Notes under the pieces: generated by a model
Database searches by the model: none
What the model was told of the DNA's origin: nothing
The model's input: only the letters and a program-made list of their open reading frames with translations
Source of the DNA: Thermomicrobiales bacterium
GTDB lineage: Bacteria; Chloroflexota; Chloroflexia; Thermomicrobiales; UBA6265
DNA length: 64,000 nt
Direction of reading: 5' to 3'
Assembly (NCBI GenBank): GCA_050696075.1
Contig: JBOGUF010000045.1
Coordinates: forward strand, 13,129-77,128
Translations under genes and position numbers: made by a program
Shown here: positions 8,430 through 45,919 of the stretch, one piece after another
How the letters are laid out: the number at the start of each line of letters is the position of its first letter
Position numbering within the stretch: position 1 is the stretch's first letter

Positions 8430-8438
8430 TGGGAAGGA

Positions 8439-9335: not shown

Positions 9336-9934
9336 CTCGTCACCTGGTCGATGGCGCCGGCAATGAGACGGGCAACGCGTTGGCTCCGCTCCAGGGCGGC
9401 CTGCCGGAGCAGCGTGCGGGTCGTCAGTCCCCGTTCGATGGCCTGCCTGACCGCGAGCTCGATTTGCTCCGGGCCGATGCCCACCTCGGCCGCGTCGAGA
9501 ATCGTCCGTGTGGCCGACGTGAGCCGAATGCCGTCGCGGACAGCGATGTCGCCCGGCTGGAGGGACTTGGACGTGGTGTGGATAGTCAGACCCGGCAGCG
9601 TCGCCAGATAACGCTTCGAGCGCGGCACCGTGAGGTGGATGCTATCAGGGATCACGTCGCTCAGGCCGTACAGGTCGAGCGCGCTCTCGTGCGACACCAC
9701 GGCCACGTCCTTGCCGACGGCGAGCCAGGCGGCGGCGACCTCGTCCCGCGGCGAGGACGGGTAGTCGCGAAAGCGATAGAGCCCTCGGTGGGTTCGAGTA
9801 AACTTACCGCTTCGCGTATGATATGTGAGCAGATTCCAGTTGAAACCGCAGGCACGGGCTTGTGCGGTTGTAAAGTAACCGTGCTGCCCGGACGCGGTCG
9901 CGAAGAGGCAGGAAAGATCTGGGTCGCTGGCCAT
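9332..9934 (-). CDS. abiEi: AbiEi-family antitoxin / transcriptional regulator
   Basis: The track ORF is 9332-9973. The N-terminal wHTH-type segment SGQHGYFTTAQARACGFNWNLLTYHTRSGKFTRTHRGLYRF is typical of AbiEi_4. I prefer the ATG at 9934 (MASDPDL...) because the 9946 and 9973 starts would place an inverted repeat inside the coding region. Confidence 0.75.
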   Translation of the reverse strand: MASDPDLSCLFATASGQHGYFTTAQARACGFNWNLLTYHTRSGKFTRTHRGLYRFRDYPSSPRDEVAAAWLAVGKDVAVVSHESALDLYGLSDVIPDSIHLTVPRSKRYLATLPGLTIHTTSKSLQPGDIAVRDGIRLTSATRTILDAAEVGIGPEQIELAVRQAIERGLTTRTLLRQAALERSQRVARLIAGAIDQVTR

Positions 9935-9944
9935 CGTGTCATCC

Positions 9945-9969
9945 ATTCCTTCAGTATATTTGAAGGAAT
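9945..9969. promoter_or_regulatory. perfect 9-bp inverted repeat (ATTCCTTCA-N7-TGAAGGAAT), candidate AbiEi operator in the abiE / helicase divergent region
   Basis: Read directly from the sequence: ATTCCTTCA at 9945-9953, spacer GTATATT, TGAAGGAAT at 9961-9969. It sits in the only AT-rich patch between the abiEi start and the helicase start (10026). AbiEi proteins are known autorepressors that bind inverted repeats. Confidence 0.35.
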
Positions 9970-10025
9970 CCATGACAGACCAGGACCAGCGAAACCTACT
10001 GCAATGTGGGACCGGGAGGGTAAGG

Positions 10026-13000: not shown

Positions 13001-15194
13001 CGACATTTCGGACCTCGGCGTCGTCCACATGCGCAACGTCCCGCGCACGCCCGCCAACTACGCGCAACGCAGCGGGCGTGCCGGCCGTGGCGGAAAGCCG
13101 GCGCTCGTCCTCACCTTCGCCAGCCAGGGCAACGCGCACGACCAGTACTTCTTCCGTCGGCGGCAGGCGATGATCGCCGGATCCGTCGCACCTAATCGCA
13201 TGGATCTCGGCAACCGGGAGCTGGTCGAGGCGCACCTCCACTCCGTCTGGCTCGCCGCAATTGGTCTCTCCCTGGGCAATTCGGTCGCCGATGTCCTCGA
13301 CCTCGGCCAGCTGAACTTCCCGATCGAGGCTGAGAAGTGGGCGAATCTGCTTCGGACGACGGAGAGCCATCGGTCCGATGTCGTTGCCGCTTTCCGCGAG
13401 ATCACCGCCGCCGACCCGACCATTACCTCCGCCGACTGGTTTACCGACGAATGGCTGGTCCAGACCGTCAGGGACGCGCCCGACGCGTTGAATGTTGCCT
13501 TTGAGCGTTGGCGCGATCTGTACCGGGCCGCTGTCGCCCTCCGCGACGAGGCCCGCCGCAAGATCGATCTGCCGCGATTGCCGCGAAAAGATCGCCAGGA
13601 CGCCGAACGCCAGGAGCAGGAAGCGAAACGCGAAGTCGATCTCCTCTTGAATCAGGGCGATTACACCGAATCGGACTTCTACCCCTATCGCTACCTCGCA
13701 ACCGAAGGCTTCCTCCCCGGCTACAACTTCCCGCGATTGCCACTCCGCGTCTTGGTCTCAGTGCGGGACAGCGCCCAATCGATCGATAGGCCGCGCTTTC
13801 TCGGCCTCTCTGAGTTCGGTCCCTGGAATGTCATCTACCATGAGGGGCGCAAGCACCGCGTATCGTCCTGTATCGTGCCTCCGGGCGGTTTCGACGCCCG
13901 CATCACCAGCGCCCGGCTCTGCAACGAGTGCGGCTACGTCCATCCCGCCAGCGAGGGACCGGTCGATCTCTGCGTCTGTTGCGGCACGATCCTCGATGCG
14001 AAGACATCTGAGTATCCACAGGCACTGCTGGAGCAGCCGACGGCGAAAGCACGCCAGCAGGAGCGGATCTCCTCAGATGAGGAGGAACGTGCCCGCGAGG
14101 GGTATCACATTACGACCCACTACCGCTTCTCGCCGGGGGCGAGTGCCCGTCGTGCCGAGGCGCGAGACGCCTCCGGCGAATGGTCGCTCCTGGAGATCGA
14201 ATACGCGCCTCGTGCGGAGCTTTGGCGCATCAACCACGGCTGGCGTCGATCCGCGGCGCGGGCCGGGTTTACGATCGATGCCGAACGTGGCCGGTGGGGT
14301 AAGCGCGAGGACGACGATCTTGAAGGTGAAAACGGAGACGAGCCAGGACTCCAGACCGTGAGAACCGGGGTCAAGACCTACGTCACCGACAGCCGCAACA
14401 TCCTCCTGTTGCGCCCCATTGCTCCCTCCGCACAGAACGAGGCATTCCTGAAGAGCCTTGCCTTCGCCTTGCAGCGAGGCATCCAGGTGGCATACCAGGT
14501 CGAGGAGAGCGAAGTCGCCATTGAGCTGATCGGCGAAGGCAGCCACCTTCGATTGCTACTCTGGGAAGCCGCGGAGGGCGGCACTGGTGTTTGGGAGCGA
14601 ATGTTGGAGGAGCCGGACTCGTTCGCCGAAGTCGCGAAGGAGGCGCTCCAGGTCTGTCACTTCGATCCAGAGACCGGAGAGCCGGATGCGGAATGGGGCC
14701 GCCGCTGCAAGTACGCTTGCTATGACTGCCTGCTCAGCTACAGCAATCAGTTGGAACACCGATTCCTCAACCGGCATCTTGTCAAGGACTATCTCCGTGA
14801 ACTAGCCACGTCGAGAGTCCAGAGTGCGACGGCGGGCCGCCCCTATGACGAGCAGTACCGATGGCTGCTCGACCGCATCGACCCGGCTTCCAGCCTGGAA
14901 CGCGAGTTCGTCGCATTCCTCCATGCGGAGAAGCTTCGCTTGCCGGACTTCGCCCAGCACCGGCCGCGCTCCGACGTGCCTGTCCAACCAGACTTCTACT
15001 ACGAACGCGATGGTCTGAACGGAGTCTGTGTCTTTGTCGACGGCCCTCACCACGACACCCCAACTCAAACAGCCAAGGACCAGGAGCTACGAGATGCCCT
15101 CGCTGACGAAGGCTTTCGCGTCGTCGTCATCCGGCACGGCCGACCCTTCGACGAGCAGGTCGCACGATACCCCGACGTGTTCGGCCCCGGTTGA
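10026..15194 (+). CDS. giant DExH helicase fused to a DUF1998/MZB-type zinc domain and a C-terminal DUF559/Vsr-like PD-(D/E)xK domain (DrmA+DrmB-like or DruE-like)
   Basis: The track ORF is 9936-15194. I prefer ATG 10026, which follows GGGAGGG at 10013-10019.
- Helicase core: Walker A IVSTGTGSGKSLTYLLP, DExH FLVIDELHVYRG, LVGTSATIA.
- A distant RecA2 lobe: FCSPTMELGVDISDLGVVHMRNVPRTPANYAQRSGRAGRGGK.
- DUF1998-type segment: YRYLATEGFLPGYNFPRLP followed by CNECGYV...CVCCG.
- C-terminus: VQPDFYYERDGLNGVCVFVDGPHHDTPTQTAKDQELRDALADEGFRVVVIRH. Confidence 0.85.
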   Translation: MSLDVFALRDRVVGEYRDYFESFVRILDERIDGFVRDSLRDGELWPDAVLQLNPAYERGQTLGELANQGLIARETARFFGPNLRLHRHQEEALGIAQCSEPYIVSTGTGSGKSLTYLLPIVDHVFRHNPDRPTVRAVIVYPMNALVNSQIDALEHFKRENWPDSPLHFARYTGQERDAEREAIINNPPHILLTNYVMLEYMLLRPHERTLLRTATKELSFLVIDELHVYRGRQGADVAMLTRRVRQKAGQDIQLVGTSATIATGGSRDDRQARIADVGSTLFGVRVPAANVVDETLQRIAAVAVPRTQAELRTAVQLPPPAPSDAGVRNHPLAAWLEETFGLQEEDGRLIRREPVTFTDGLKRLVEASGLPTDLCRERLMAALEAGNAVRTNTGDPLFAFRLHQFLASGSSVYATIEQPDSRQLTLAGQFVAPDEDDIEEGSAGEQPKLLYPLAFCRDCGQEYYLVSRADLDGGERLLPRLPLLNAPDDELPGMYGFFAVETGDLWPEETPGDTRRLTQLPEFWFEQRKSGPKVRQRYEEHIPLELWAHPSGAVSWEPVQGAVHGWFQARPLMLCLRCRASYTLRDKSDFRKLATLSQTGRSTATTILSNAAVGGLRAAHPEDRGGNKVLSFTDNRQDASLQAGHLNDFAQITLLRGALSRALTEQDELTFSRLGPAILAALGPKPEEFMREPVDSGPGHDSARAVMVNLLTYRAFEDLRRAWRIAQPNLEQVGLLSLRYAGMEELALDDARWSDVPVLAAASGHKRWEVLQAILDHLRGLLVIDAECLQAESTRELVNRANQWLRTPWSIDRRERLRESVIARLPGIGMPEHDRDSTIGLSYRSTLGRYLRSRHTWDLPSDLSATDVDAMVLGIVAVLRGHVLTVVTKDGEDYGVQIKADVVRWQRGDGRAAGLDPVRARALHKRRLEMLSTEPNAFFSRLYQEPSRLLAGITGAEHTGQVDRETRLVREREFKAGQLAAMFCSPTMELGVDISDLGVVHMRNVPRTPANYAQRSGRAGRGGKPALVLTFASQGNAHDQYFFRRRQAMIAGSVAPNRMDLGNRELVEAHLHSVWLAAIGLSLGNSVADVLDLGQLNFPIEAEKWANLLRTTESHRSDVVAAFREITAADPTITSADWFTDEWLVQTVRDAPDALNVAFERWRDLYRAAVALRDEARRKIDLPRLPRKDRQDAERQEQEAKREVDLLLNQGDYTESDFYPYRYLATEGFLPGYNFPRLPLRVLVSVRDSAQSIDRPRFLGLSEFGPWNVIYHEGRKHRVSSCIVPPGGFDARITSARLCNECGYVHPASEGPVDLCVCCGTILDAKTSEYPQALLEQPTAKARQQERISSDEEERAREGYHITTHYRFSPGASARRAEARDASGEWSLLEIEYAPRAELWRINHGWRRSAARAGFTIDAERGRWGKREDDDLEGENGDEPGLQTVRTGVKTYVTDSRNILLLRPIAPSAQNEAFLKSLAFALQRGIQVAYQVEESEVAIELIGEGSHLRLLLWEAAEGGTGVWERMLEEPDSFAEVAKEALQVCHFDPETGEPDAEWGRRCKYACYDCLLSYSNQLEHRFLNRHLVKDYLRELATSRVQSATAGRPYDEQYRWLLDRIDPASSLEREFVAFLHAEKLRLPDFAQHRPRSDVPVQPDFYYERDGLNGVCVFVDGPHHDTPTQTAKDQELRDALADEGFRVVVIRHGRPFDEQVARYPDVFGPG

Positions 15195-15429
15195 AGCCTC
15201 ACCTCGTATCTGCGTCAACTCATGCGAAGCCCCGTTTGCTCACAGCATGGTGACAAAGTGAGGTGAGCTGCCCCAGTGGTCGCACGACACGCCAGGGCAG
15301 CGGCTTCCCGTGCGCGCGTATGAGGGACAGGGGCAGGGCTGATTAGCGCGTCGCCGGCGGCGTATTCTTCGAAATCATTAGCAGTTTGCGCAACTCTGCA
15401 TGCTGGCGCATGCGAGAGAAGGCAGCGAG

Positions 15430-16035
15430 ATGGGTGGCTACGGATCAGGCACCAGGCTCTTCAAGAAACCATCGACCGACCGGGCGTTCGCGCTCGACGT
15501 GCGCCAGCTTGCGCGACGCGGCGGACTGGCGCCCGGCGACCACACCTACACGTGGCCCGGTCTCCTCGGCGATGCGGTGGTTGCATACTCCGTCGAAGGC
15601 GACACGCTGACCCTCGCGTACCAGATCAGTTCGCCATTCGACGGCGATCGGCACGTGCGGCAGCCGGTCGCGCTGGTCCGCACGCCCTGTCACTACGGGG
15701 GCGAGCGCCCGTGGTTTGCGTGTCCAGGTTGCGGCGGTCGCGTCGCCGTCCTACACCTGCTTGGACTGCACTTCCGTTGCCGACGTTGCCACGGCTTGGT
15801 CTACGCCTCGACACGCGAGGACCAGGGACGGCGCCAGTTCCGCAAGGCCAACCGCCTGCGCGCCCAGCTCGGCGCTCCGCCGGTCCTGGGCCTCATTCCT
15901 CGACGGCCGGCGTGGCTGAGTTGGCGCCGGTACTGGCGCACCGTTGACCGCATTCGAGAACTGGACGCCCAATACCTCGACGGGATGGACGCCCACGTTG
16001 CGACCTTGCGCCAGGCCGCAGGACTCGACACGTGA
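15430..16035 (+). CDS. hypothetical zinc-ribbon protein
   Basis: The track ORF is 15400-16035. I prefer ATG 15430 (MGGYGSG...). CHYGGERPWFACPGCGGRVAVLHLLGLHFRCRRCHGLVYAS is a CxxC...CxxC ribbon. From memory it resembles a widespread uncharacterised family. Confidence 0.5.
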   Translation: MGGYGSGTRLFKKPSTDRAFALDVRQLARRGGLAPGDHTYTWPGLLGDAVVAYSVEGDTLTLAYQISSPFDGDRHVRQPVALVRTPCHYGGERPWFACPGCGGRVAVLHLLGLHFRCRRCHGLVYASTREDQGRRQFRKANRLRAQLGAPPVLGLIPRRPAWLSWRRYWRTVDRIRELDAQYLDGMDAHVATLRQAAGLDT

Positions 16036-16701
16036 GTTCCGCATGGGCTTCAGAATCGTCGCGTACCTGCGAGAGAGGCGCGAGGGAACCCCTCCCCACC
16101 CCGCACATTCGGACAATCCACGAAAAGTCCTCCCGTACACGGGAGGGCTAGGGGGGAGCGGCACGATCCCTCGATGCGACGGGAGCTTGTGAGCCCAAGC
16201 GATTGGATGTGCAGGTCGGGTCTGGTAGATCGCTCGTCGATATGCACGGACGGGCCATCCCCGGCCACTCTCGCGCCGCATCTGCAACACGACGCCTCGT
16301 TCTCCACCGGGGACGGAAGGAGAGGAATCAACCGCCTGCTAGATCGAAACGGCTGCTGTCGCCATTCGATGGGAGCTTATCGGCGCTCTGACGCCACGTC
16401 CCGGCGATTCCGCTTTCATCTGAGCAGAGCACAGGTGGCTGCACATCACCATATTCAATGTGCGACCGATAATGCGTCTGTTGCTGGGGTGCTCGGGGCA
16501 ACAAGATGCTGTGTCAGGCGGACGTGTTTGCACGGTTCAGCAGGAAGGGCTGTCCTCCTGTCCATGATCCGCTCGCTGCGTAATATCCTCCGGCCTCCCC
16601 GCCTCCCGGCGACTCGGATGAAAAAAGAAGGATGGGTATGGGGAGCAGGGCAGAGGCAAGTCAGATGCCGGGTCGATGCGTGGCGGCGACGGGTGCCGAG
16701 T

Positions 16702-16730
16702 GAGGGAAGCGGTGAACCTCCGCTTCCCTC
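16702..16730 (-). terminator. GC-rich hairpin just downstream of the leftward operon
   Basis: GAGGGAAGCGG-tgaacct-CCGCTTCCCTC forms a perfect 11-bp stem. It lies 10 nt beyond the stop of the 16740-17327 gene. There is no U-tract on either strand. Confidence 0.35.
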
Positions 16731-16739
16731 GGGTGGTGG

Positions 16740-17327
16740 TTAGTGGTCCGGCTGCACGCCGAAGAGCGCCAGGCAGCGGGCAAGCTGCGGCTCGTTCGCC
16801 GTGCCGTAGAAGAAGTGATAGCGCAGCGCGCCATCGTGGGCCGGCTTGACCACCCAGCAGGCGGGACCGGTCACGAAGACGTGCGGGTGATCGAACAGGT
16901 CATCCGGGCCGGCCTCGGGCCGATAGACAACCTCCCAGCCGTTCGCCCTGACCTGGAAGTGCGGACAGTCGCGGGTGTAGGTGACGCTGGCCGCGCCGAT
17001 GGCCTTCGCCTGGGCGAGGGCGAGTTGCATCAGCTTGGGTTTGCCGATGAGGTCGCAGCCATGCAGGGTGGCCAGGTCGACGGTCACGGGCACGTGGCGG
17101 ATGAGCTCATCGCTGTAGGCGTCGGCGCGGCCGGCGCGGTGGGCGTAGTCGCTGCCGTGGGTGTGTCGATCGAGCGGGGCGTTCAGGCTGGCATGGATGG
17201 CATCGCGCATGGTGCGCAGCGCGGCGAGGCCGCCGGCGACCTGGGGCGCTTCGCGGGCACCGTCCCGAAACCCGCGGCGGTAGGCGTCCGCGTACTCGTC
17301 GGCAAGGGCCAGATCGTAACCGATCAT
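16740..17327 (-). CDS. hypothetical protein
   Basis: The track ORF is 16740-17597. I prefer ATG 17327 (MIGYDLALADEY...) because the upstream 90 codons are Arg/Pro/Ser-rich and non-protein-like. No recognisable motif. Confidence 0.4.
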   Translation of the reverse strand: MIGYDLALADEYADAYRRGFRDGAREAPQVAGGLAALRTMRDAIHASLNAPLDRHTHGSDYAHRAGRADAYSDELIRHVPVTVDLATLHGCDLIGKPKLMQLALAQAKAIGAASVTYTRDCPHFQVRANGWEVVYRPEAGPDDLFDHPHVFVTGPACWVVKPAHDGALRYHFFYGTANEPQLARCLALFGVQPDH

Positions 17328-17556
17328 CGTCAGGCATCCTTTCACGCATAGGGGACGTTGCGATCGGGAGAGCGCCGCCGGCTGGGCGGGGACACGGCGC
17401 CATGTCCCCGCCGTGCGGCGCGTCGTCGCGTCAACCTCGCTGGGGCAGGTGGTCAGGCGGCTGGCCGTCGGACCTGGCATGCGATCACACCGGACGAATC
17501 GCGCCGAGCCGGGGGCGAGGAGGGAGCGACCGGCGTTGGTCGCTCCCCGGTGAGGG

Positions 17557-18003
17557 CTAGGCCGCGATCCGGAGATCGCACGGTTCGTCGGCGGCACGGG
17601 CCGCCATCCGCTCGATCAGAGCGATGGCGCGGTCGGCCGTTGCCTGCTCGCCGTCCCGCTGCGTGTCATCAGCCCGTGCGGGCCGTCGAAACGGGATGAC
17701 GTTGGCCGGGGCGGGTGGCTCCGGCTCGGGATCGAGGTCGAGCATGCCCTGCCGGTGCCAGTAGAGCGCGCGGTGCTTACACACCGGATCGCCGCCCAGC
17801 ATGGCCGCCTCGCACGTGCAGTCGCGGCCGTCCGTCTCGTAGGCGACGCCGTCGCGGGTGCCGCTCGTGGCGATCCACTGGCCGGAGCCGGAGAGCTGCC
17901 GCACTTGGAGTCCGTCGGCCAGCGCCCGCTTCAGCGCCGCCTGCCAGCGCTCCGGCGTGGCGATCCGGCGGCGTGGGGTGGGAACAACTGCCTGTGTTTG
18001 CAT
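17557..18003 (-). CDS. SWIM zinc-finger protein
   Basis: 148 aa. CTCEAAMLGGDPVCKH matches the SWIM pattern CxCx(n)CxH. GGGAAGGA lies 9 nt upstream of the ATG. Confidence 0.55.
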   Translation of the reverse strand: MQTQAVVPTPRRRIATPERWQAALKRALADGLQVRQLSGSGQWIATSGTRDGVAYETDGRDCTCEAAMLGGDPVCKHRALYWHRQGMLDLDPEPEPPAPANVIPFRRPARADDTQRDGEQATADRAIALIERMAARAADEPCDLRIAA

Positions 18004-18276
18004 AGTGGTATCCTTCCCGTGCTCAATCCTGCGAGGGCGTGAGCGTGAGCCCCTGACGTGTGCCTAGCGCGTCGGGGGCTTTGTCGTCTGTGCCGGTGGC
18101 CGCTTTGGTTTTGGCTCTTCTGCCTTAGCCCGGTCGGCCGCTCCTTCTAATCCCCGCGACAGGCGACGCGCCGCCTGCCCGATGCCGGGTGCTTGTCCGG
18201 TGGTGCTGCTCGATGGGCGGCTCCTTTGCTTTGGGGCGGGTACCGGGTGTGGGGATCCTCCCCACTTGCCAAAGAC

Positions 18277-18305
18277 ATGATACATCTTTGATCTATCTCT
18301 GTCAA
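18277..18305 (-). promoter_or_regulatory. sigma70-type promoter (TTGACA-17-TATCAT) reading leftward
   Basis: On the minus strand, TTGACA is at 18305-18300, followed by a 17-nt spacer and TATCAT at 18282-18277. It sits in the AT-rich patch of the 18004-18424 intergenic region. Confidence 0.45.
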
Positions 18306-18334
18306 TAGGAATACTGCACAATTGCGGCAATGAA

Positions 18335-18363
18335 TTGACATAGTACGATCTTTCCCTTATCAT
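18335..18363 (+). promoter_or_regulatory. sigma70-type promoter (TTGACA-17-TATCAT) reading rightward into the XRE-recombinase operon
   Basis: TTGACA is at 18335-18340, followed by a 17-nt spacer and TATCAT at 18358-18363. It is arranged back-to-back with the leftward promoter. Confidence 0.45.
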
Positions 18364-18424
18364 GTTACCGGCAACGTTCGGGCAGATGACGCAACGATGC
18401 GACATCGCGGGAGGTGTGACGGGG

Positions 18425-18667
18425 ATGCACGTGGACGGGGGGCTGTTGCGCCGGGCGCGGATTCGGCGCGCGCTCTCCCAGGCCGAGCTCGCCGAGGCGG
18501 CCGGCATCAACCGGATGACGGTCAGTCGGCTGGAGATGGGACGGGGGGAAGCGGTCCAGGCGGCGACGCTGCGCAAGCTTGCCGGCACGCTCGATGTCGA
18601 GCCAGGGGACTTGATTGACTGGCCAGCCGAGGAAAGCCGCGGGCAGGTGGCCGACCGCAGCAATTGA
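18425..18667 (+). CDS. XRE-family helix-turn-helix transcriptional regulator
   Basis: LLRRARIRRALSQAELAEAAGINRMTVSRLEMGRGEAVQAATLRKLAGTLDV is a classic HTH_3/XRE motif. The track start at 18362 overlaps the -10 box. I prefer ATG 18425, downstream of GGGAGG at 18409-18414; 18386 is also possible. Confidence 0.75.
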   Translation: MHVDGGLLRRARIRRALSQAELAEAAGINRMTVSRLEMGRGEAVQAATLRKLAGTLDVEPGDLIDWPAEESRGQVADRSN

Positions 18668-18687
18668 CCGCAGTAAGGACGGCAGCT

Positions 18688-20532
18688 ATGCGCTTACAAC
18701 GAAACAGCCACAACACTGTGCCACTGAGGGCAGGACTCTATGAGCGGGTGAGTAGCGAGGAGCAGGTCCAGGGCTATTCGCTCGACGCCCAGGATCGCGC
18801 CGGACGCGGCTACTGCGACGCGCACGGCTGGACCGTCGTCCGCGTCTACCGCGACGAGGGCAAGAGCGCCCGCACCGACGACTTCGCGAAGCGTCCCGAT
18901 TTCGCGCAGATGATCGCCGACGCCGAAGCCGGTCTGCTCGACGTCATCGTCGTCCACAAACTCGACCGTTTCGCCCGAAATCTCCGGGTGACGCTGGAGA
19001 CGCTGGAACGCCTCGACCGCGCCGGCGCCGGGTTCGTCTCGATCAGCGAGAACATGGATTTCACCACGCCGATCGGCAAGGTGATCCTCGCCACGCTCGC
19101 AGCCTTCGCCCAGTACTACAGCGACAACCTCAGTTGGGAGACAAAGAAGGGCAAGGCCGAGCGCAAGGCGCAGGGCCTTTGGAACGGCGTCCTTCCGTTC
19201 GGACTCAAGCGCAGTGCCGCCCTCAACGGCGAAGGCGTGCTCGTTCCTGATCCTCAAGCGCCGCCGGTGCCAGACCCCGAGACGTATTCCGGTCTGCTCA
19301 CGGCCTTCCAGGCGGCCGCTGAAGGCAAGAGCGACCGCGACGTCGCCGAGGCACTGAACGCGGCCGGCTGCCGCACGACGGGTAATCGCGGCCGCAACCT
19401 CTTCACGAAGGACACCGTGCGGCGGATGCTGACCAACCGGTTCTACCTCGGCGAGCTGCCGGACGGCGCCGGGGGCTGGATGCCCGGCGCTCACGCCCCG
19501 TTGTTCGACGCGGACCTCTTTGAGCGCGCCCAGCAAACGCGCGTGTCGAACCGATCCGGGGCGCTCCACGTGGCACGTGCCCGCCGAACGCATTCGCTCT
19601 CGGGCATCGGCGTCTGCGCCCATTGCGGCGGCCGGCTCCACATCATCACCAACCGCCACCAGCGAACCCGCATCCACTGCTACCAGCGACGGCAGACCGA
19701 CCGCTGCGTCCAGCGCTCCGTCCTGCTCGACGGAATCGAGGCGCAGATCGAGCGGTACCTGGCGACCTTCACCCTGCCGGACGAGACGGTGCGGCAGATC
19801 GTCGCCCTTCACGAGCAGGCGCACGCCCAGCAAGACGACGCCGAGCGGCGACGCCGAGAGATCACCAACCGGCTGGAGCGGATCCGCGAGCTCTACAAGT
19901 GGGGAGACCTTACGAGCGAGGCATACCAGTCAGAGCGAGACCAGTTAGAAGCCGAGCGCGCGACGCTACGCGGCTCCCGTGACATGGCCGCCATCCTCGT
20001 CCAGACCGCGACCCTTCTCCGCGACCTCGCTGCGATGTGGCGGCAGGCGACGCAGGAGGAGCGCAATACACTGGCCCGCCTTGCCTTCCAGTCCGTGGAG
20101 ATCAAAGACGACCGCGTCGCCGCCATCGTCCCGACGCCCGACTTCGCGCCGTTCTTCGTAGACGAGGCGGCCAAGAACGGACGACTCGGGACAAATGGAA
20201 ACGGCACCGATGACGGTGCCGTCAACCTTAGGGTAGATGAGGCGGAAGCGACGGGATTCGAACCCGCGATCTCAGCCTTGACAGGGCTGCATGTTAGGCC
20301 ACTACACCACGCCTCCGTACCGAACTGGATGCTACCACGCGGCCAAAATGCATGTCAAGCACGATATCTGGGCGGACGACCGCTCATGCTGCCGACTCCG
20401 GGACGTCCGCTAGCAGCCGCGTCAAGACATCGTCACCCGAAACTCCCTCTGCCTCCGCTTCGAAGTTCAAGATCACGCGATGGCGCAGCGCGGGCAGCGC
20501 GACGCTCCGCACGTCATCGTAGGCCACATTGA
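18688..20532 (+). CDS. large serine recombinase (integrase); 3' end uncertain
   Basis: - Resolvase-type catalytic domain: AGLYERVSSEEQVQGYSLDAQ ... VVHKLDRFARNLRVTLETLERL.
- Recombinase domain and zinc ribbon: CAHCGGRLHIITNRHQRTRIHCYQRRQTDRC.
- A coiled-coil-like region follows.
- ATG 18688 lies after TAAGGA.
- The frame stays open about 110 codons past the recognisable domains. It runs antisense through the tRNA-Asp terminator, the tRNA and the moxR 3' end. Confidence 0.8.
   Translation: MRLQRNSHNTVPLRAGLYERVSSEEQVQGYSLDAQDRAGRGYCDAHGWTVVRVYRDEGKSARTDDFAKRPDFAQMIADAEAGLLDVIVVHKLDRFARNLRVTLETLERLDRAGAGFVSISENMDFTTPIGKVILATLAAFAQYYSDNLSWETKKGKAERKAQGLWNGVLPFGLKRSAALNGEGVLVPDPQAPPVPDPETYSGLLTAFQAAAEGKSDRDVAEALNAAGCRTTGNRGRNLFTKDTVRRMLTNRFYLGELPDGAGGWMPGAHAPLFDADLFERAQQTRVSNRSGALHVARARRTHSLSGIGVCAHCGGRLHIITNRHQRTRIHCYQRRQTDRCVQRSVLLDGIEAQIERYLATFTLPDETVRQIVALHEQAHAQQDDAERRRREITNRLERIRELYKWGDLTSEAYQSERDQLEAERATLRGSRDMAAILVQTATLLRDLAAMWRQATQEERNTLARLAFQSVEIKDDRVAAIVPTPDFAPFFVDEAAKNGRLGTNGNGTDDGAVNLRVDEAEATGFEPAISALTGLHVRPLHHASVPNWMLPRGQNACQARYLGGRPLMLPTPGRPLAAASRHRHPKLPLPPLRSSRSRDGAARAARRSARHRRPH
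20201..20222 (-). terminator. intrinsic terminator of tRNA-Asp
   Basis: On the minus strand, ACGGCACCG-tcat-CGGTGCCGT forms a 9-bp stem and is followed by TTCCATTTGT. It lies 21 nt downstream of the tRNA 3' end. Confidence 0.45.
20243..20316 (-). tRNA. tRNA-Asp (anticodon GTC)
   Basis: I folded this 74-nt sequence by hand.
- Acceptor stem GGAGGCG/CGCTTCC, with one G-U pair.
- D stem GTGT/ACAT.
- Anticodon stem CAGCC/GGCTG with loop CTGTCAA.
- 5-nt variable loop.
- T arm GCGGG-TTCGAAT-CCCGT.
- Discriminator G; CCA is not encoded. Confidence 0.9.
20329..20358 (-). promoter_or_regulatory. tRNA-Asp promoter (TTGACA-18-TAGCAT)
   Basis: On the minus strand, TTGACA is at 20358-20353, followed by an 18-nt spacer and TAGCAT at 20334-20329. 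The -10 box ends 12 nt upstream of the mature tRNA 5' end. Confidence 0.45.
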
Positions 20533-37276: not shown

Positions 37277-38071
37277 ATGAATTGGACGGATTCTCCCCTC
37301 GATCCATACGAACAGATTCCCGCACTCTACGACCTGGAGCATGCGGGGTTCGAAGACGACCTCGATTTTTACGCGAGTCTTGTCGAAGCGATCGGCGATC
37401 CCGTCCTGGACCTCGGCTGTGGCACGGGTCGACTGCTGTTGCCAATCGCGCGGGCCGGGTATCGGGTCACGGGCCTCGACCTGTCGAGGCCCATGCTCGA
37501 TCGGGCGCGCGAGTTCGCGCATGCGGAGGGACTCGACGAGCGTGTCACCTTGTTCCATGGCTCGATGCTCGATGCCCATCGCGCCCCAGGCGGCCCCTTC
37601 GGCATCGCCATCATCGCGCTCAACGGATTGTTGCACCTGACGACGCTGCAGGAACAATTGGCGGCTCTGCGCTCGATCAGAAAAGCACTCGATCCGCGCG
37701 GGCAGCTTGTTCTCGATCTGCTCAATCCGAGTCCGGACGCCTTGCGCGGATTCGATCACGTGATTTCGCACGACGGCATGTGGACTGAACCGAATGGTGA
37801 CCGGGTCGACAAGTTCGCGGCCCGGCGCGTCTCCCACGCCACGCAAACGATCCGCACCGAGCTGTGGTACGACCGGGTCTCGCCCGACGGCTCGCTGCGG
37901 CGCACGACAACGAGTTTTGACATGCGCTACATACACCGAGCGGAGCTTGAATTGATGCTCGAACTCGCCGGTTATGTCGAATGGCAGGTGTACGGCAGCT
38001 ACGACCTCGATCCCTATGACGAGGCGTCGGACCGCCTCATCGTGGCGGCGGAGGTTACGTCGTCACGGTAG
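37277..38071 (+). CDS. class I SAM-dependent methyltransferase
   Basis: Motif I is VLDLGCGTGRLLLPIARAGYRVTGLDLSRPML. The substrate is unknown. Confidence 0.75.
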   Translation: MNWTDSPLDPYEQIPALYDLEHAGFEDDLDFYASLVEAIGDPVLDLGCGTGRLLLPIARAGYRVTGLDLSRPMLDRAREFAHAEGLDERVTLFHGSMLDAHRAPGGPFGIAIIALNGLLHLTTLQEQLAALRSIRKALDPRGQLVLDLLNPSPDALRGFDHVISHDGMWTEPNGDRVDKFAARRVSHATQTIRTELWYDRVSPDGSLRRTTTSFDMRYIHRAELELMLELAGYVEWQVYGSYDLDPYDEASDRLIVAAEVTSSR

Positions 38072-39152
38072 CTGCTTCCGCCTTCGGCGAAATGCGCGCC
38101 GCCCGATTCAGGAGCAGAAGATCGGCCAGCAAGATCGCCAGCATTGCCTCGGCGACCGGCACCGCCCGCGGGCAGACCGACGGGTCGTGCCGCCCTTCGA
38201 CGACGATCTCGCGCGATGCCAGCGAAGTATCGACCGTCTGTTGTGCCTTTGAAACCGACGACGTCGGCTTTACCGCGATACGAACGATGATCTCTTCGCC
38301 GGACGATATTCCCCCAAGGGTTCCTCCGTGGGCGTTAGTTCGTGTCCGCACGCGACCATTTTCAGCAAAGAACGAATCATTTGCTTGTGAACCACGCGAG
38401 CGCACGACGGCGAAACCATCACCGATTTCGACCCCTTTGACCGCTGGAATGCTCAACATCGCCTGGCCGATCAGCGCGTCGAGTTTGTCGAACGTCGGTT
38501 CGCCCAGTCCGACCGGCACGCCAGAGGCACGCACCTCAACGATGCCACCGAGACTATCACCCTCGTCCTTTGCCGCCATGATCGCCTCGACTATTCGCTC
38601 CGCCGCGATCGGGTCCGGGCAGCGAACGATGTTGCGCTCAATCTCGTCCCGGTCAAACGATTCCATGGCGATGCCGCCCAACTCGCGGACAAAGCCATAG
38701 ACTTCGCAGCCCGCGGCGGCCAAGATCTTTCGCGCAATCGCGCCCGCCGCCACACGTCCCCAAGTCTCGCGCGCCGACGAGCGGCCTCCTCCCCGGTGGT
38801 CGCGATGGCCGTATTTCGCCCAGTACGTGAAATCGGCATGACCTGGCCGAAAGACGTTGCGCAACGGTTCATATTTTGACGAGTCGACGTCGCGGTTATA
38901 GGTGATCAGGGAAATCGGAGCGCCCGTCGTCACGCCTTCAAACACGCCTGAGAGGAGTTCAGCCCGATCAGCCTCATTACGAGGCGTAGTGACCTTGCTT
39001 TGACCGACCCGCCGGCGATTAAGCTGCTCTTGGATTTCTTCGACGTCGAGCGAAATTCCAGCGGGACAGCCCTCGATCACCACCCCGAGTGCCGGACCGT
39101 GGGATTCGCCCCAGGTGGTCAACTTGAAAATACGTCCGAATGTGCTTGCCAT
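38055..39152 (-). CDS. aroC: chorismate synthase
   Basis: FGRIFKLTTWGESHGPALGVVIEGCPAG and RPGHADFTYWAKYG are canonical AroC signatures. Confidence 0.9.
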   Translation of the reverse strand: MASTFGRIFKLTTWGESHGPALGVVIEGCPAGISLDVEEIQEQLNRRRVGQSKVTTPRNEADRAELLSGVFEGVTTGAPISLITYNRDVDSSKYEPLRNVFRPGHADFTYWAKYGHRDHRGGGRSSARETWGRVAAGAIARKILAAAGCEVYGFVRELGGIAMESFDRDEIERNIVRCPDPIAAERIVEAIMAAKDEGDSLGGIVEVRASGVPVGLGEPTFDKLDALIGQAMLSIPAVKGVEIGDGFAVVRSRGSQANDSFFAENGRVRTRTNAHGGTLGGISSGEEIIVRIAVKPTSSVSKAQQTVDTSLASREIVVEGRHDPSVCPRAVPVAEAMLAILLADLLLLNRAARISPKAEAATVTT

Positions 39153-41970: not shown

Positions 41971-42657
41971 ATGGAAAACGTTTCGTTCGATTTACCACTC
42001 TTCCCGCTCAGCACCGTTCTGTTTCCCGGGACGGACATCCCCCTACACATCTTCGAAGAACGCTATCAGCAGCTCATCACAGATCGCCAAGACGAGGATC
42101 CTGCCTTTGGCATCGTGCTGATCACTGGAGGCAGCGAGGTCGGCGACCAGCCGATAACCGCGAATGTTGGCACAGCGGCATCCATCGAAGCACTCCGTGA
42201 GTACGACGATGGGCGGTTCGATCTCGTTGTGCGAGGAAGCCGTCGGTTTCGCATCCTCGAACGTGACTGGAGTCGACCGTATCTCGTTGGCACGGTCGAA
42301 TGGTTACCCGTAACCGAGGAAGACCCCGTAGATTCCGCCATGGTCGAGAGCGCATGGCAATCGTTTGTCGCCCTCGCCAATGCCTATCTCCATCAGACGG
42401 CGCGTTCCAGTGAGCGATCGCTGGAACTCGAAGCACGGGCGCGACCTAGCGGGATGTCCGCGTCGGAACTCGCCTACGTCCTTGCCAGCCGCCTACCGGT
42501 GGCAGCGAGCGATCGTCAGGACCTGCTCGAAACGTCGACGACCGAAGACTTCTTGGCGTTGCTGGTGCGGATCATGTCGCGTGAGCGTCGCTTGGTCAAT
42601 CGCATCGGAGCCACCATCGTCGTCGCGGGCGGATCGGTCAGCGAGGCCAGTTCGTAG
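41971..42657 (+). CDS. LON N-terminal (substrate-binding) domain protein
   Basis: LPLFPLSTVLFPGTDIPLHIFEERYQQLI is the LON_substr_bdg signature. I prefer ATG 41971. Confidence 0.7.
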   Translation: MENVSFDLPLFPLSTVLFPGTDIPLHIFEERYQQLITDRQDEDPAFGIVLITGGSEVGDQPITANVGTAASIEALREYDDGRFDLVVRGSRRFRILERDWSRPYLVGTVEWLPVTEEDPVDSAMVESAWQSFVALANAYLHQTARSSERSLELEARARPSGMSASELAYVLASRLPVAASDRQDLLETSTTEDFLALLVRIMSRERRLVNRIGATIVVAGGSVSEASS

Positions 42658-43066
42658 GCAGGGATTCGCTGGCGCCTAGCGCTTCGGCAGCGCGCGAGAG
42701 CACCTCCATGGGCGGTAGCATCCGCGCGTCGATGATGAGAAGTGCCACCTCCCGCGCGTTCTCAAGACGACGAAGCTGGGCGGCGAAGAGGTCCGCGGGC
42801 CAATCGGAGCCGCGTCGCCTTCGGATCGTGCCAAGATCAACTTCGAGAAAGACGACAGCCGTCGGGTTGCCGTGGCGCCAGAGCGTCGAAATCTCGGAAT
42901 GTTCTTGGCCGCAAACGTACGCATCGAAACCGAGCTGGCGAAGTCCCTCGACCAGCGTTGACTTTCCTGATGCACAGGGACCCACGACGGCAATCCGAGG
43001 TGGCATTCGCGCGTCATCGTCAGGCGTCACGGCGTCGACTCCTAGCGCCTCAGGCAAGTGGGGCAT
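42638..43066 (-). CDS. small P-loop NTPase / kinase-like protein
   Basis: Walker A is RIAVVGPCASGKSTLVEGL. It overlaps the upstream phosphatase gene by 17 nt. The start could instead be 43006. Confidence 0.5.
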   Translation of the reverse strand: MPHLPEALGVDAVTPDDDARMPPRIAVVGPCASGKSTLVEGLRQLGFDAYVCGQEHSEISTLWRHGNPTAVVFLEVDLGTIRRRRGSDWPADLFAAQLRRLENAREVALLIIDARMLPPMEVLSRAAEALGASESLPTNWPR

Positions 43067-43763
43067 ACAGCTGGACGGTTCGGACGTGCGGGTGATGATC
43101 GTGCTCTCGCAAACCCATTACCACCACGGTCATATCGTCGCGCGGTCTGTCTTCGTCTCGTCGGATCGCCTCCTGCAAGATCGCCGCGGCCATCCGCGTG
43201 GCATCGCAGCTATCGCCGAGCGTTTCTTGCGCGAATGACCGAACGTCGAAAGTATCTGGGCCGAACCTGGTGCCGGCGGTCGCCACCCCATCCGTGATCG
43301 TGCAGACGACGAGTCCGGCCTCGGTTGCCAGTTGCGTGACGGCGGGACGCGTGAAGTGATAGCGCCCGATCGGGCCGGCAAATGGTTCGATTGACCGCCA
43401 ATCGCTTGCCTCTCGAACGATCAAGGGAGTGGCGCCATTGCGCGTCGCGATCACCGATTTCGTCTTGAGGTCGATCGACACGATATCGAGCGAGGCCGAA
43501 ACCCGACCCTGGCGATAAGCAAAGAGAACGTCGTGAACAGCACGGGCGACTGCTCCGTCGCGCACTCCTTCCTTAATCAGGGCCACCGCCTTGCTGGTAA
43601 GCAGAAGGCTCAACGCTTTGGCGCCACTGCCACTGCCCTGCCCGTCGACCGCGACAACCGAGAATCCACCACCTGGCCGTTCGATCAATTCGGCGGGGTC
43701 TCCGCTCTCCCGGCTCGCGTATTTGTTTGTCTTCGCGACCGCGAATTCGACGGCCAACTCCAT
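43050..43763 (-). CDS. stand-alone SpoIIE/PP2C-type serine phosphatase domain protein
   Basis: SVVAVDGQGSGSGAKA, ITDGVATAG and DDMTVVVMG match the metal-binding Asp motifs of the PP2C/SpoIIE fold. I prefer ATG 43763, which follows AAGGA. Confidence 0.6.
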   Translation of the reverse strand: MELAVEFAVAKTNKYASRESGDPAELIERPGGGFSVVAVDGQGSGSGAKALSLLLTSKAVALIKEGVRDGAVARAVHDVLFAYRQGRVSASLDIVSIDLKTKSVIATRNGATPLIVREASDWRSIEPFAGPIGRYHFTRPAVTQLATEAGLVVCTITDGVATAGTRFGPDTFDVRSFAQETLGDSCDATRMAAAILQEAIRRDEDRPRDDMTVVVMGLREHDHHPHVRTVQLYAPLA

Positions 43764-43923
43764 AATAAATTCCTTTGCACTCATTGCACGTCGATAATGG
43801 CAAGTGACTAGCAAGCGGACGAATGCAACACGGTCGGCGGTATTCCCAGTACTTTGATACCATACACGTATGTTGGGCGGGCATTATCCCCCAACATTCC
43901 TAGTAATATCAGTCAGAAAACCC

Positions 43924-43952
43924 TTGACAGTTAAGCACCCAGGTCCTAAGCT
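43924..43952 (+). promoter_or_regulatory. candidate promoter (TTGACA-17-TAAGCT) upstream of the mini-ORFs
   Basis: TTGACA is at 43924-43929, followed by a 17-nt spacer and TAAGCT at 43947-43952. It sits in an AT-richer intergenic region. Confidence 0.3.
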
Positions 43953-44080
43953 GGTTTATAGGGCGAACTTCAGAAAAGTAAACCGCATGAGAACTCAACT
44001 TGACTTGGTGTCTGGATGTGACCCGCTTAGGAGGAACACCCTTCTTTGCGGAGTTGGTGCGAGAAGAAAGGAGGAGCGCT

Positions 44081-44110
44081 TTGAAGTGGAAGAACGTCAA
44101 GTGGTCGTAG
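44081..44110 (+). CDS. candidate 9-codon mini-ORF (M)KWKNVKWS
   Basis: TTG 44081 lies 5 nt after AAGGAGGA (44068-44075). The ORF ends TAG 44108-44110. Its last five codons use the same nucleotides as the downstream repeat unit. Confidence 0.3.
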   Translation: MKWKNVKWS

Positions 44111-44180
44111 TCCGGTGTCTGCATCACTCGTCGCCGTGATACCCCTTTGGTCCGAACGTCCATTCAGTTGAGGGAGTGCA

Positions 44181-44258
44181 ATGATGATCCACGCCAACGT
44201 CAAGTGGTCCAACGTCAAGTGGTCCAACGTCAAATGGTCCAACGTCAAATGGTCCTAG
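44181..44258 (+). CDS. candidate 25-aa peptide MMIHA(NVKWS)x4
   Basis: ATG 44181 (or 44184) lies 4 nt after GAGGGAG (44170-44176). The body of the ORF is the 4x15-bp tandem repeat. The stop is TAG at 44256-44258. Confidence 0.4.
   Translation: MMIHANVKWSNVKWSNVKWSNVKWS
44196..44255. repeat. 4 x 15-bp perfect head-to-tail tandem repeat
   Basis: AACGTCAAGTGGTCC occurs twice, then AACGTCAAATGGTCC twice, read directly. A partial fifth copy (AACGTCAAGTGGTC) lies at 44093-44106. Confidence 0.95.
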
Positions 44259-44536
44259 GCAGGCGGCGCCGCGTCTCTTCGCACGATTGTGCGACTCCTT
44301 GCATGGGTTAGCAGGTGGTGACGGCGACGGAATCTATACCTGGAAAGGGGCAGTCGTTGGCCCAGTCATACGGCTGACGATCGTCGCGTCGAATCCCTAG
44401 CCCCCACTAGTCTATTCCACAGATCCTCTTGGACGGATTACAATCTCCAGCAACGCGCTCGCGTCAAGCTGGTTTCGGATGCTGAGGTCTCGCCAGCGAG
44501 ATTTGCAGCATCTGCCCGGTCCGCCAAGAGACAGGC

Positions 44537-45919
44537 ATGAGCGACATTCCACTTATCACAAAAGTCTATTCCGGTATCTTGCTCCTGGTCACGGTCGTCG
44601 TCGTTGGTGGCACGGCCTGGCGTGGGAGCGAATGGTTCTCCCGCGACGATCTTCTGACTGCCGTGCTGCTGGCAGTCTTGATCGTCCTCGTCGAAACATT
44701 CGAGATCGAGTTCCCCCAGCCGAAGTTTCAAGTCTTCATTACGGTTGGCGCCATTCTCGCTTTTGCCTCAGGGCTCACGCTGGGACCAGTCCTCGGTGCC
44801 CTGGTCGTGATCGTCGCCGAACTGATCAGCGATACTTGGCAGCGGCTCGGCCTCATTCAGATCCTCGTCAACGCCTCCAACCTCGGATTGGCAACCTTTC
44901 TCGGCGCTCAGGTGTACGAATGGCTTGCCGCTGGTGCGTCGACGCCGCTGGATTCGGCACGCGCGTTGGGCGCAAGTGCGGTCGGCGCCATTGTCTACAC
45001 CATGGTCAATACTGGGGTACTGTCCGTCATCCTTTCCCCAGTCATCGGGGATTCCCCGCTCAGCGTTTGGAGGGCGAACTTTAGCGCGACCTATATCTTC
45101 CTGGTCCTGCCAACGCTGGGCAGCCTCGTGCCGGTTATCGACGACGTCAATCCATTCGGCATCCCCATTCTGCTTGTTCCCGTCATCGGTTCCCGGCTTG
45201 CTCAACGTGCGCTGCGCCAAGTTGCAGAAGAGTCTCAAGCCGCCATCGAGGGCCTTGCGGACGCCCTTGAGAAACGGGATCAATACACGCACCGTCACTC
45301 GATCCGGGTCGCCGAATACACGACGTCGATCCTCGCGGAGATGCCCCACATTCCGACCCTGACGCGCGAGACAATTATCAGCGCCGCGCGCATTCATGAC
45401 CTCGGCAAGGTCGGCACCGGGGATATTGCCCTTCGCAAGAACGGACCGCTGACCGATCAAGAGCGGCGAGAGATGCAACAGCACGCCGCCATTGGCGCGG
45501 ACATCATTGCCCGTCTCTCCTTTTATCAGCACAGTGTGCCGACTGTTCGACATCATCATGAACGGTGGAACGGTAGCGGCTATCCCAGCGGCTTGAGTGG
45601 CGAGAACATCCCGCTCGGCGCCCGAATCGTCGGCGTCGCGGACGCGTTCGACGCTATGACGTCGGACCGCCCGTACCGGCGGGCGATGGCGATTCCGGAT
45701 GCGTTGGCCGAACTCAAACGCAATAGCGGAATTCAGTTCGACCCCCAAATCGTCGAAGCATTCGTGCGCGCGATGACACAACCGCACCCGAACTCCGACC
45801 ACCCCGTACCATCCGACGCCGAAACTGCGGACGACGATCGCCCCCCGATCGCGGCGGTGTTTCGACGGATTCCTCGGCCGTTCACAAAGCGGGCCCACCG
45901 TCCCGCTTCCGCCGACTGA
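44537..45919 (+). CDS. membrane-bound HD-GYP domain protein (probable c-di-GMP phosphodiesterase)
   Basis: The N-terminal ~220 aa form a polytopic hydrophobic domain. HD-GYP motifs: HRHSIRVAEY, RIHDLGKVG, HHERWNGSGYPSGL and ADAFDAMTSDRPYR. Confidence 0.8.
   Translation: MSDIPLITKVYSGILLLVTVVVVGGTAWRGSEWFSRDDLLTAVLLAVLIVLVETFEIEFPQPKFQVFITVGAILAFASGLTLGPVLGALVVIVAELISDTWQRLGLIQILVNASNLGLATFLGAQVYEWLAAGASTPLDSARALGASAVGAIVYTMVNTGVLSVILSPVIGDSPLSVWRANFSATYIFLVLPTLGSLVPVIDDVNPFGIPILLVPVIGSRLAQRALRQVAEESQAAIEGLADALEKRDQYTHRHSIRVAEYTTSILAEMPHIPTLTRETIISAARIHDLGKVGTGDIALRKNGPLTDQERREMQQHAAIGADIIARLSFYQHSVPTVRHHHERWNGSGYPSGLSGENIPLGARIVGVADAFDAMTSDRPYRRAMAIPDALAELKRNSGIQFDPQIVEAFVRAMTQPHPNSDHPVPSDAETADDDRPPIAAVFRRIPRPFTKRAHRPASAD

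Follow-up and report, generated by a model that had tools for sequence, protein, structure and literature searches.

In a 64-kb stretch of DNA from a Thermomicrobiales bacterium (contig JBOGUF010000045.1; hereafter the window), a 722-bp gap between a SpoIIE-domain gene and an HD-GYP gene contains two very short open reading frames (mini-ORFs), ORF1 and ORF2, the second of which has a 15-bp tandem repeat as its body. Comparison with related loci strongly supports the conclusion that these mini-ORFs belong to a family of micro-genes, 9 to 30 codons long, that is translated, under purifying selection, unannotated and present in many Thermomicrobiales. The HD-GYP gene encodes a predicted membrane phosphodiesterase of cyclic di-GMP (c-di-GMP), and we tentatively suggest that the peptides act in trans as its partner, either as ligand or as modulator.

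Reading frame and conservation of the mini-ORFs

The gap (positions 43815-44536) has a GC content of 0.475-0.575, compared with about 0.59-0.68 in its flanks. It is bordered on the left by the SpoIIE-domain gene (43050-43814, minus strand; PF07228) and on the right by the HD-GYP gene (44537-45919, plus strand; PF13487/PF01966), a constant neighbour on the downstream side of the mini-ORFs. ORF2 (44181-44258, plus strand) has 25 codons, reads MMIHA(NVKWS)4 and ends in TAG, with the Shine-Dalgarno (SD) sequence GAGGGAG (44170-44176, plus strand) lying 4 nt before its ATG. Its body consists of four abutting 15-bp units, AACGTCAA(G/A)TGGTCC (44196-44255, plus strand), and Tandem Repeats Finder reports this array (44194-44255; period 15, 4.1 copies, 97% matches, score 110) as the strongest of the window. 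The unit AACGTCAARTGGTCC is present in four exact copies and in one copy with one mismatch at 44093-44107; a count of 5 compares with 0.22 expected by shuffling and is reached in none of 100 shuffles. ORF1 (44081-44110, plus strand) has 9 codons, starts with TTG, reads M-K-W-K-N-V-K-W-S and ends in TAG, with the SD sequence AAGGAGGA (44068-44075, plus strand) 5 nt before the TTG. The AT-richer gap, the four spacerless units and the two SD-preceded ORFs, all reported in a preliminary description of the locus, were confirmed by inspection of the sequence and, for the array, by Tandem Repeats Finder.

Comparison with related loci, which had been set beforehand as the test of translation, singles out the plus frame. 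Specifically, 40 NVKW[S/T] units from nine loci comprise 16 nucleotide variants, which encode 2 peptides in the plus frame and 7-16 strings, some with stops, in each other frame. The variable unit positions are 3, 6, 9 and 15, which are codon position 3, together with position 13 (TCC/ACC, Ser/Thr). In the window, the AAG/AAA polymorphism is synonymous in the plus frame and in one antisense frame, as first described. Copy number is 3, 4 or 5 units, always in multiples of 15 bp, and every array has a start codon and an SD at its front and a stop directly after its last unit. All 16 mini-ORFs with a complete 5′ end have their own GGAGG-type SD site, and SD, frame and 15-bp-multiple copy number are each conserved in the relatives.

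The same variation bears on the proposal that the 15-bp units are DNA iterons, that is, binding sites of a regulator or a replication protein, with the ORFs incidental. The units are indeed direct repeats arranged head-to-tail in an AT-richer intergenic stretch between divergent genes, but their variation, 16 DNA variants for 2 peptides, is confined to the third positions of one frame (plus the Ser/Thr change), which excludes iterons or any other frame-independent DNA or RNA element. Moreover, start codon, SD and stop frame the arrays in every lineage, and the single-unit ORF1 is conserved in lineages without repeats. The iteron option of the preliminary description is therefore refuted, and we attach a negligible probability to it.

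Orthologs of ORF1 show a mean pairwise identity of 0.76 at codon positions 1 and 2 and of 0.62 at position 3, and the 60 nt on either side show an identity of 0.25, the random level. Four residues (K2, W3, N5 and W8) do not vary. Lys and Arg alternate at position 7, an exchange that takes 2-3 nucleotide changes, and position 6 changes from Val to Leu, Ile or Tyr and remains hydrophobic. A scan with the signature start-x-W...W-x-stop plus SD retrieved the mini-ORFs of the window and its relatives and only one chance match in about 150 kb.

No family in NCBIfam or Pfam matches the peptides, and a literature search with the peptide strings turned up irrelevant matches only. The sequence [S/T]-N-V-K-W can be read in the A(D/N)LXX register of pentapeptide-repeat proteins such as Qnr and MfpA (PF00805/PF13599); unlike those proteins, the arrays comprise no more than 3-5 units, about one coil, and ORF1 falls short of two. 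The real peptides give no match or 12 bits against a cut-off of 38, and an artificial 16-unit concatemer gives 29.4 bits on Pentapeptide_4, again below the 38-bit cut-off. Being too short and below threshold, the peptides are not pentapeptide-repeat members.

Related loci, array dynamics and the HD-GYP neighbour

One related locus (L001) was found by look-up of an identical HD-GYP protein, and the others were found by pattern, concatemer and HD-GYP-homologue searches. A genome-collection scan with a back-translated two-unit pattern yielded one Thermomicrobiales metagenome-assembled genome with two loci (L003 and L005), and a protein-database search with a synthetic repeat concatemer yielded P0001 and P0002 as the only real relatives. 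A looser metagenome DNA pattern, KWxNxKWxNxKW, matched unrelated 15-bp repeats and gave no new relative among the 120 matches listed. The strict repeat pattern had no matches in viral contigs, and tblastn with the HD-GYP protein found no close homologue in plasmids.

The ortholog of the window locus, L005, carries MKWKNVKWT, MTRA(NVKWT)3 and MIST(NVKWT)3 ahead of its HD-GYP gene. Comparable sets occur in L126/P0002 (MKWKNVKWT and MLS(NVKWT)4), L130 (MKWTNVKWT, VISA(NVKWT)4 and MLSA(NVKWT)4), P0001 (MISA(NVKWT)4) and L127-L129 (a truncated array, then MTISA(NVKWT)3). Three further loci have an ORF1 and no repeat ORF, namely L131 (MKWKNLRWT), L132 ((GTG)KWKNIRWV) and L133 (MKWQNYRWG), with HD-GYP proteins 58%, 54% and 50% identical to that of the window, respectively. 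The linkage of mini-ORF and HD-GYP gene is kept in the window, L005, L126/P0002, P0001, L127, L130, L131, L132 and L133, over HD-GYP identities from 100% down to 50%. In 7/7 ORF1-bearing lineages, ORF1 is co-directional with the HD-GYP gene and precedes it by 260-420 nt. In L132 and L133, a methyltransferase gene is inserted between the SpoIIE gene and ORF1, and ORF1 still lies 260-290 nt before the HD-GYP gene, indicating that ORF1 travels with HD-GYP and not with SpoIIE. Synteny in about nine lineages thus supports the link to the adjacent polytopic HD-GYP protein that the preliminary description had raised as one option.

The HD-GYP protein matches HD_5 (PF13487) with an E-value of 1.3e-31 and contains the motifs HDLGKVG and HHERWNGSGYP. 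In a Foldseek comparison of its AlphaFold2 model (mean pLDDT 86, 53 homologues), the C-terminal half resembles the HD-GYP structures 4r8z, 4mcw and 9rbz (E 1e-8 to 1e-10), and the N-terminal membrane half resembles the S components RibU, FolT, BioY and ThiT, with a probability of about 1 and target-normalised TM-scores of 0.55-0.67. In Pfam, this half reaches two sub-threshold matches, ECF_trnsprt (24.7 bits; cut-off 30.7) and MASE9 (16 bits; cut-off 24.3), the latter a domain proposed by Galperin and Chou to bind a ligand within the membrane (bioRxiv 10.1101/2021.11.05.467447). On the evidence of the model, the neighbour is an ECF-S-component-like membrane domain fused to a predicted HD-GYP c-di-GMP phosphodiesterase. 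The fusion to a phosphodiesterase argues that the N-terminal domain is a sensor-type relative of S components, not a transporter subunit.

A sister clade of HD-GYP proteins (L134 and L137/L139), 46-48% identical to the window protein and about as close to L131 as L133 is, is likewise preceded by mini-ORFs, here of a second peptide family, which lends further support to the HD-GYP link. Seven tandem 17-codon ORFs reading MTWD-x6-[H/Y]DSATWK are present in L137 (2040-2665) and in L139 (1794-2340), and one MTWD..DSATWK ORF is present in L134 (2613-2669). They lie between a TTGACA-17-TAATGT element and the HD-GYP gene, each with an SD and a TAG stop, and a truncated MTWD-TAA ORF stands ahead of the seven-ORF array. 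The six-residue middle is hypervariable and the ends are conserved, with differences in the ends being synonymous (GAC/GAT, GCG/GCC, AAG/AAA). Successive ORFs are 81-85 nt apart. As not every distance is divisible by three, a long ORF on one or the other strand cannot account for the repeat.

Both families have Trp at codon 3, almost always a penultimate Trp and a TAG or TAA stop, and little else in common. Across the window, L003, L005, L126, L127, L130-L134 and L137, mini-ORF stops are TAG in 22 cases, TAA in 3 and TGA in 0, as against TGA in 24, TAG in 10 and TAA in 9 of 43 ordinary window genes. The exclusive use of TAG and TAA could reflect termination specific to release factor 1, or history; we partly discount the bias as historical, because TAG can change to TGA only via TAA or a sense codon.

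An orphan copy, MRISA(NVKWT)4, is present in L003 (7111-7187) at a place unrelated to the HD-GYP locus. In L003/L136 (L136 1-2070), its neighbours are an LCP gene on one side and, on the other, a PAS-GGDEF-EAL gene in convergent orientation, whose 3′ end is about 290 nt away; no co-directional gene follows the orphan. The orphan has its own promoter-like site and SD, and its peptide is kept through synonymous changes. The adjoining PAS-GGDEF-EAL gene is 43% identical to one that divergently adjoins the MTWD..DSATWK array in L134, hinting that the link of the mini-ORFs to c-di-GMP genes may extend beyond HD-GYP. A further contig carrying the LCP gene from the same assembly (L135) stops short of the expected mini-ORF position and is uninformative.

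Taken across these loci, the sequence comparison indicates that ORF1, with the pattern M-K-W-x-N-Φ-[K/R]-W-x-stop, is the ancestral and most widely conserved element and that the NVKWS-repeat ORFs are a subclade expansion, which reverses the ranking of the preliminary description, where ORF1 was a side feature. ORF2 would have been born by in-frame 15-bp amplification of the C-terminal pentapeptide of ORF1, and unit-unit recombination would keep the arrays changing, with the result that arrays have 3-5 units, a locus has 1-2 repeat ORFs and further copies lie elsewhere. In line with such exchange, window ORF2 (44181-44258) is matched in the alignment by two L005 segments (L005 1040-1240, minus strand), the 5′ end of ORF2 and the 3′ end of ORF3, a pattern which suggests that two arrays were fused, or one was split, by recombination between repeat units.

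Contigs L002 (1-52) and L127-L129 (1-34) begin inside an array, and L001 changes context inside one, indicating that repeats occur at more than one locus per genome and confuse assemblers. L001 (GCA_975325355.1, contig CDICZW010000164.1, 1-2112) carries MRIWA(NVKWS)5, with GTG for Val in two units, an array that a gene caller had already predicted as a 30-aa gene. L001 and the window have an identical 279-bp spacer and HD-GYP gene, and their upstream regions differ. In particular, a beta-helix/NosD-like gene (545 aa) lies upstream of the L001 array, and neither the window nor L003 or L005 has a counterpart of it. L001 may be an assembler mis-join of a second locus or a real recombinant through the repeat, and for this reason it was left out as independent evidence of linkage.

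Putative transcription signals of the mini-ORFs

A promoter-like element, P1, consists of TTGACA (43924-43929) and TAAGCT (43947-43952) separated by 17 nt on the plus strand (43924-43952), exactly where the preliminary description had placed it. A consensus scan misses P1, because TAAGCT fits TATAAT at 3/6 positions only. P1 is nearly identical between the window and L005, and TTGACA-17-TAnnnT is present about 100-270 nt before the first mini-ORF in L005, L130, L131, L132, L133, L003 and L137, and about 100-170 nt upstream of each ORF1. The putative 5′ leader of the mini-ORF transcript (43953-44067, plus strand; about 120 nt) is about 85% identical to that of L005 and is not recognisable or alignable in more distant lineages; conservation is poor in the spacer between the ORFs and downstream of ORF2. 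The leader also contains a hairpin, AGGAGG-AACA-CCCTTCT (about 44023-44039), which pairs an SD-like sequence.

The consensus scan finds a second promoter-like element, P2 (TCCACA-17-TACAAT; 44416-44444, plus strand), which would be the promoter of the HD-GYP gene. The window and L005 hardly differ in the P2 block, and L126, L130, L131, L132, L133 and L137 have a box reading TACAAT, TATACT or TACACT at a distance of about 60-120 nt ahead of the HD-GYP start. Conservation of P2 rests on this motif reading, because the HD-GYP upstream regions of the nine lineages are too diverged to align. A strong hairpin follows the ORF1 stop in L131-L133, in L133 succeeded by TTTTGTTT. The P1-type promoter-like element with its consensus -35 box, the post-ORF1 hairpins and P2 together suggest that the mini-ORFs form a transcription unit of their own. 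Rfam gives no credible match in the intergenic region of the window or in nine related loci, arguing that no known riboswitch or small RNA is located there.

The spacer of the mini-ORF promoter contains a palindrome, AGTAC-N3-[A/G]GTACT, in L131 (3400-3413), L132 (2514-2527) and L133 (2564-2577). In these three lineages it is an exact RGTACNNNDGTWCB on both strands, the Nostoc LexA box as quoted in PMC3091678, a consensus that may not be the one of this order. In the window, the promoter palindrome is degenerate (43930-43946), and a near-palindrome, AGTACTTTGATACC, in a block partly conserved with L005, lies at 43848-43861, 63 nt upstream of P1. The spacer palindrome is probably the operator of some regulator, and a LexA-type operator in P1 is conceivable.

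The same features bear on the proposal that the mini-ORFs are cis-acting arrest or attenuation leaders. According to this proposal, the ribosome would pause on the K-W-x-N-x-K/R-W-x chain or on the stop and thereby control read-through of the hairpin into the HD-GYP gene, with Trp-tRNA charging or a small molecule as the pause cue, in the manner of TnaC, TrpL and MgtL. Like TrpL, TnaC, MgtL and SpeFL, the family has an SD-preceded short ORF that is rich in Trp codons (2/9 in ORF1 and 4/25 in ORF2, versus 1.35% in the window proteins), is co-directional with the HD-GYP gene at the same 260-420-nt distance in every lineage, and is followed by strong hairpins in L131-L133. Arrest peptides are likewise conserved at the peptide level, and the penultimate Trp together with the TAG/TAA-only stops could indicate a termination-linked mechanism.

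However, the conserved promoter-like P2 stands between the mini-ORFs and the HD-GYP gene, no terminator-like site was found downstream of ORF2 in the window, and no alternative antiterminator structure came to light either. The orphan in L003 lacks a co-directional downstream gene; arrays of two to seven ORFs, a hypervariable middle and unit amplification are foreign to known leader peptides; and the stop-codon bias is perhaps partly historical. The leader-peptide option of the preliminary description is weakened by hairpins placed after the stop, by the promoter-like site and by the orphan copy. We consider a cis-acting leader unlikely.

Gene neighbourhood and possible functions of the peptides

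The surroundings of the mini-ORF genes are housekeeping in character (HAD, TrmD, RecO, cytochrome c maturation), and chorismate synthase (38055-39152) is the sole aromatic-pathway gene in the window. The Pfam search of its sizeable ORFs found no radical-SAM, YcaO, ATP-grasp, P450, lanthipeptide, protease or peptidase-ABC/peptide-exporter domain, so that the original observation of no maturase, exporter or trp gene nearby holds at Pfam level for the whole 64 kb. In the flanks of L001, L003/L136, L130-L134 and L137, there is likewise no domain of a peptide exporter or of an enzyme for peptides that are made by the ribosome and modified after translation (RiPPs). A major facilitator superfamily (MFS) exporter was considered as a conserved neighbour and rejected, as the MFS genes near L130 and L134/L137 are non-orthologous and none is present in the window.

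Several other genes of the window were noted in passing. Downstream of the SpoIIE-domain gene lies a 142-aa ORF (42638-43066, minus strand) with weak P-loop matches only (AAA_18/AAA_33). A similar-sized gene follows the SpoIIE gene in the L131, L132, L133 and P0002 contigs, and the counterparts in L132 and L133 have weak AAA matches too. A 176-aa plus-strand ORF (42708-43238) without Pfam match overlaps it and is probably spurious. Positions 883-20532 form a defence or mobile island, with an SNF2/ResIII helicase, a 1518-aa Eco57I-type N6-methylase, an AbiEii/AbiEi toxin-antitoxin pair, a 1752-aa DEAD/MrfA-Zn helicase, four ORFs without Pfam match and a large serine recombinase.

The domain searches bear on the possibility that the peptides are modified or secreted products, either multi-core RiPPs or leaderless peptides of the phenol-soluble modulin (PSM) type, with tailoring or export genes elsewhere. 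The NVKWS units would then be cores, linked for example into a W-S/T-N cyclophane or between Lys and Trp, or else the building blocks of a peptide of the cell surface or of a biofilm. Identical units and whole ORFs are both amplified in tandem, the conserved ends of MTWD..DSATWK around a variable middle are like recognition sequences around a core, and there are several loci per genome. Tandem units, Trp, Lys and Asn residues and tiny ORFs are also features of multi-core or minimal RiPPs (cyanobactin PatE, repeat graspetides, triceptide and streptide/darobactin-type peptides with Trp/Lys cross-links, MccA and BytA), and very small precursor genes exist, MccA having 7 codons and BytA 5. The staphylococcal PSM-alpha operon has four tandem SD-preceded, unannotated, leaderless ORFs of about 20 codons without signal peptides, and its exporter is encoded elsewhere.

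The mini-ORFs nevertheless differ from both classes. They have no leader or recognition sequence, follower or spacer, only 3-5 residues preceding units that abut and then stop, no maturase, protease or peptide-exporter domain accompanies them at about 10 loci, and their surroundings are of housekeeping character. Unlike PSMs, which are amphipathic alpha-helices of 20-45 residues, the mini-ORF peptides have 9-30 residues with a 5-residue period, and no Agr-like control or Pmt-like exporter is known for them. The RiPP-precursor option of the preliminary description is accordingly weakened, and we consider a modified or secreted product quite improbable.

The peptides might instead bind a nucleotide or nucleic acid, for example by sequestering c-di-GMP through Trp stacking, Lys/Arg and Asn and so buffering the messenger. 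Invariant W, K/R and N at a fixed 5-residue period would suit such binding, and both well-defined loci adjoin c-di-GMP turnover genes (HD-GYP, and PAS-GGDEF-EAL in L003). Short linear peptides that bind c-di-GMP dimers with nanomolar affinity do so through arginines and aromatic stacking (PMC7382256). However, the known c-di-GMP-binding motif DRR-x11-[R/K]RxxD is absent from the mini-ORF peptides, they use Lys more than Arg and contain no Asp, and the sister family MTWD..DSATWK is not basic. Direct nucleotide binding therefore appears very improbable to us.

The family falls outside every known class considered, and works like a peptide-sensor cassette or a leader peptide. We tentatively favour action of the peptides in trans on the adjacent phosphodiesterase, on account of the apparent independent transcription, the orphan copy, the amplification of units, the two peptide families that track two sensor clades and the ligand-binding fold. 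In particular, an orphan copy without a downstream target argues for a diffusible product. The mini-ORFs would form a small, separately transcribed micro-gene operon whose product is the peptide itself. Transcription from P1 would yield an RNA with an approximately 120-nt leader that carries ORF1 (fMKWKNVKWS) and ORF2 (MMIHA(NVKWS)4), each with a strong ribosome-binding site. The Trp-bearing peptides would bind the S-component-like HD-GYP protein as ligands or modulators, so that P1 activity would be converted, through the peptide, into changed c-di-GMP turnover, and the numbers of repeats and of ORFs would set dose or valency.

This arrangement resembles pheromone-receptor cassettes such as Phr-Rap, PapR-PlcR, SHP-Rgg and AgrD-AgrC in that a tiny peptide gene adjoins a sensor gene, the peptide genes are multiplied and the peptide type tracks the sensor clade (KWxNx[K/R]Wx versus MTWD..DSATWK). 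It differs in lacking a signal peptide, a propeptide and any gene for processing or export, in that the partner is an S-component-like HD-GYP protein, not an RRNPP regulator or a histidine kinase, and in that the peptides can be as small as 9 residues, fMet counted. A further comparison is with MgrB, which is longer than these peptides and membrane-spanning. As in MgrB-PhoQ and in phage peptide-YfiN, an encoded small peptide would tune a membrane signalling enzyme, in the present case one of c-di-GMP turnover. A precedent for small peptides that modulate a membrane c-di-GMP enzyme is given by phage peptides that bind the diguanylate cyclase YfiN, as described in PMC8085984. A more specific version holds that the 9-30-residue Trp micropeptides are the cognate ligands of the S-component-like sensor-HD-GYP, forming a new signalling cassette with a direct peptide-to-c-di-GMP pathway in which peptide and sensor clades co-diversify (or, as a variant, the peptides bind c-di-GMP); this version we regard as doubtful.

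Several considerations weigh against a partner role in trans. A free 9-residue cytoplasmic peptide is normally short-lived. The peptides have no hydrophobic signal, and no signal peptide, processing gene or conserved exporter accompanies them, yet S components bind ligands from outside the cell. The two families share only M-x-W...W-x-stop, which offers little for a common receptor-binding mode. Synteny by itself could be due to a conserved order of the genes and not to function, the link of the orphan to GGDEF-EAL concerns one locus only, and a short Trp-codon-rich ORF, a hairpin and a same-strand gene are the layout of an attenuator too. Finally, all sequences derive from metagenome-assembled genomes and metagenomes, and all evidence is comparative.

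The family thus includes a 27-nt coding gene that is clearly under purifying selection, is conserved across this order of Chloroflexota and is missed by gene callers. It is a micro-gene locked to a c-di-GMP phosphodiesterase, and it has no entry in Pfam, NCBIfam, Rfam or the literature that could be searched. The locus illustrates how micro-genes evolve, through unit amplification in multiples of 15 bp, array fusion and dispersal to new loci, processes that explain the contig breaks and mis-joins of metagenomes at these sites. If the peptides are arrest peptides, they would form a new class among nascent-chain sensors, marked by very short length and by an unusual choice of stop codons. If they are ligands or modulators, a sensor of the S-component-like or MASE9-like kind would for the first time have an input signal, and peptides would be wired to second-messenger turnover in a new way.

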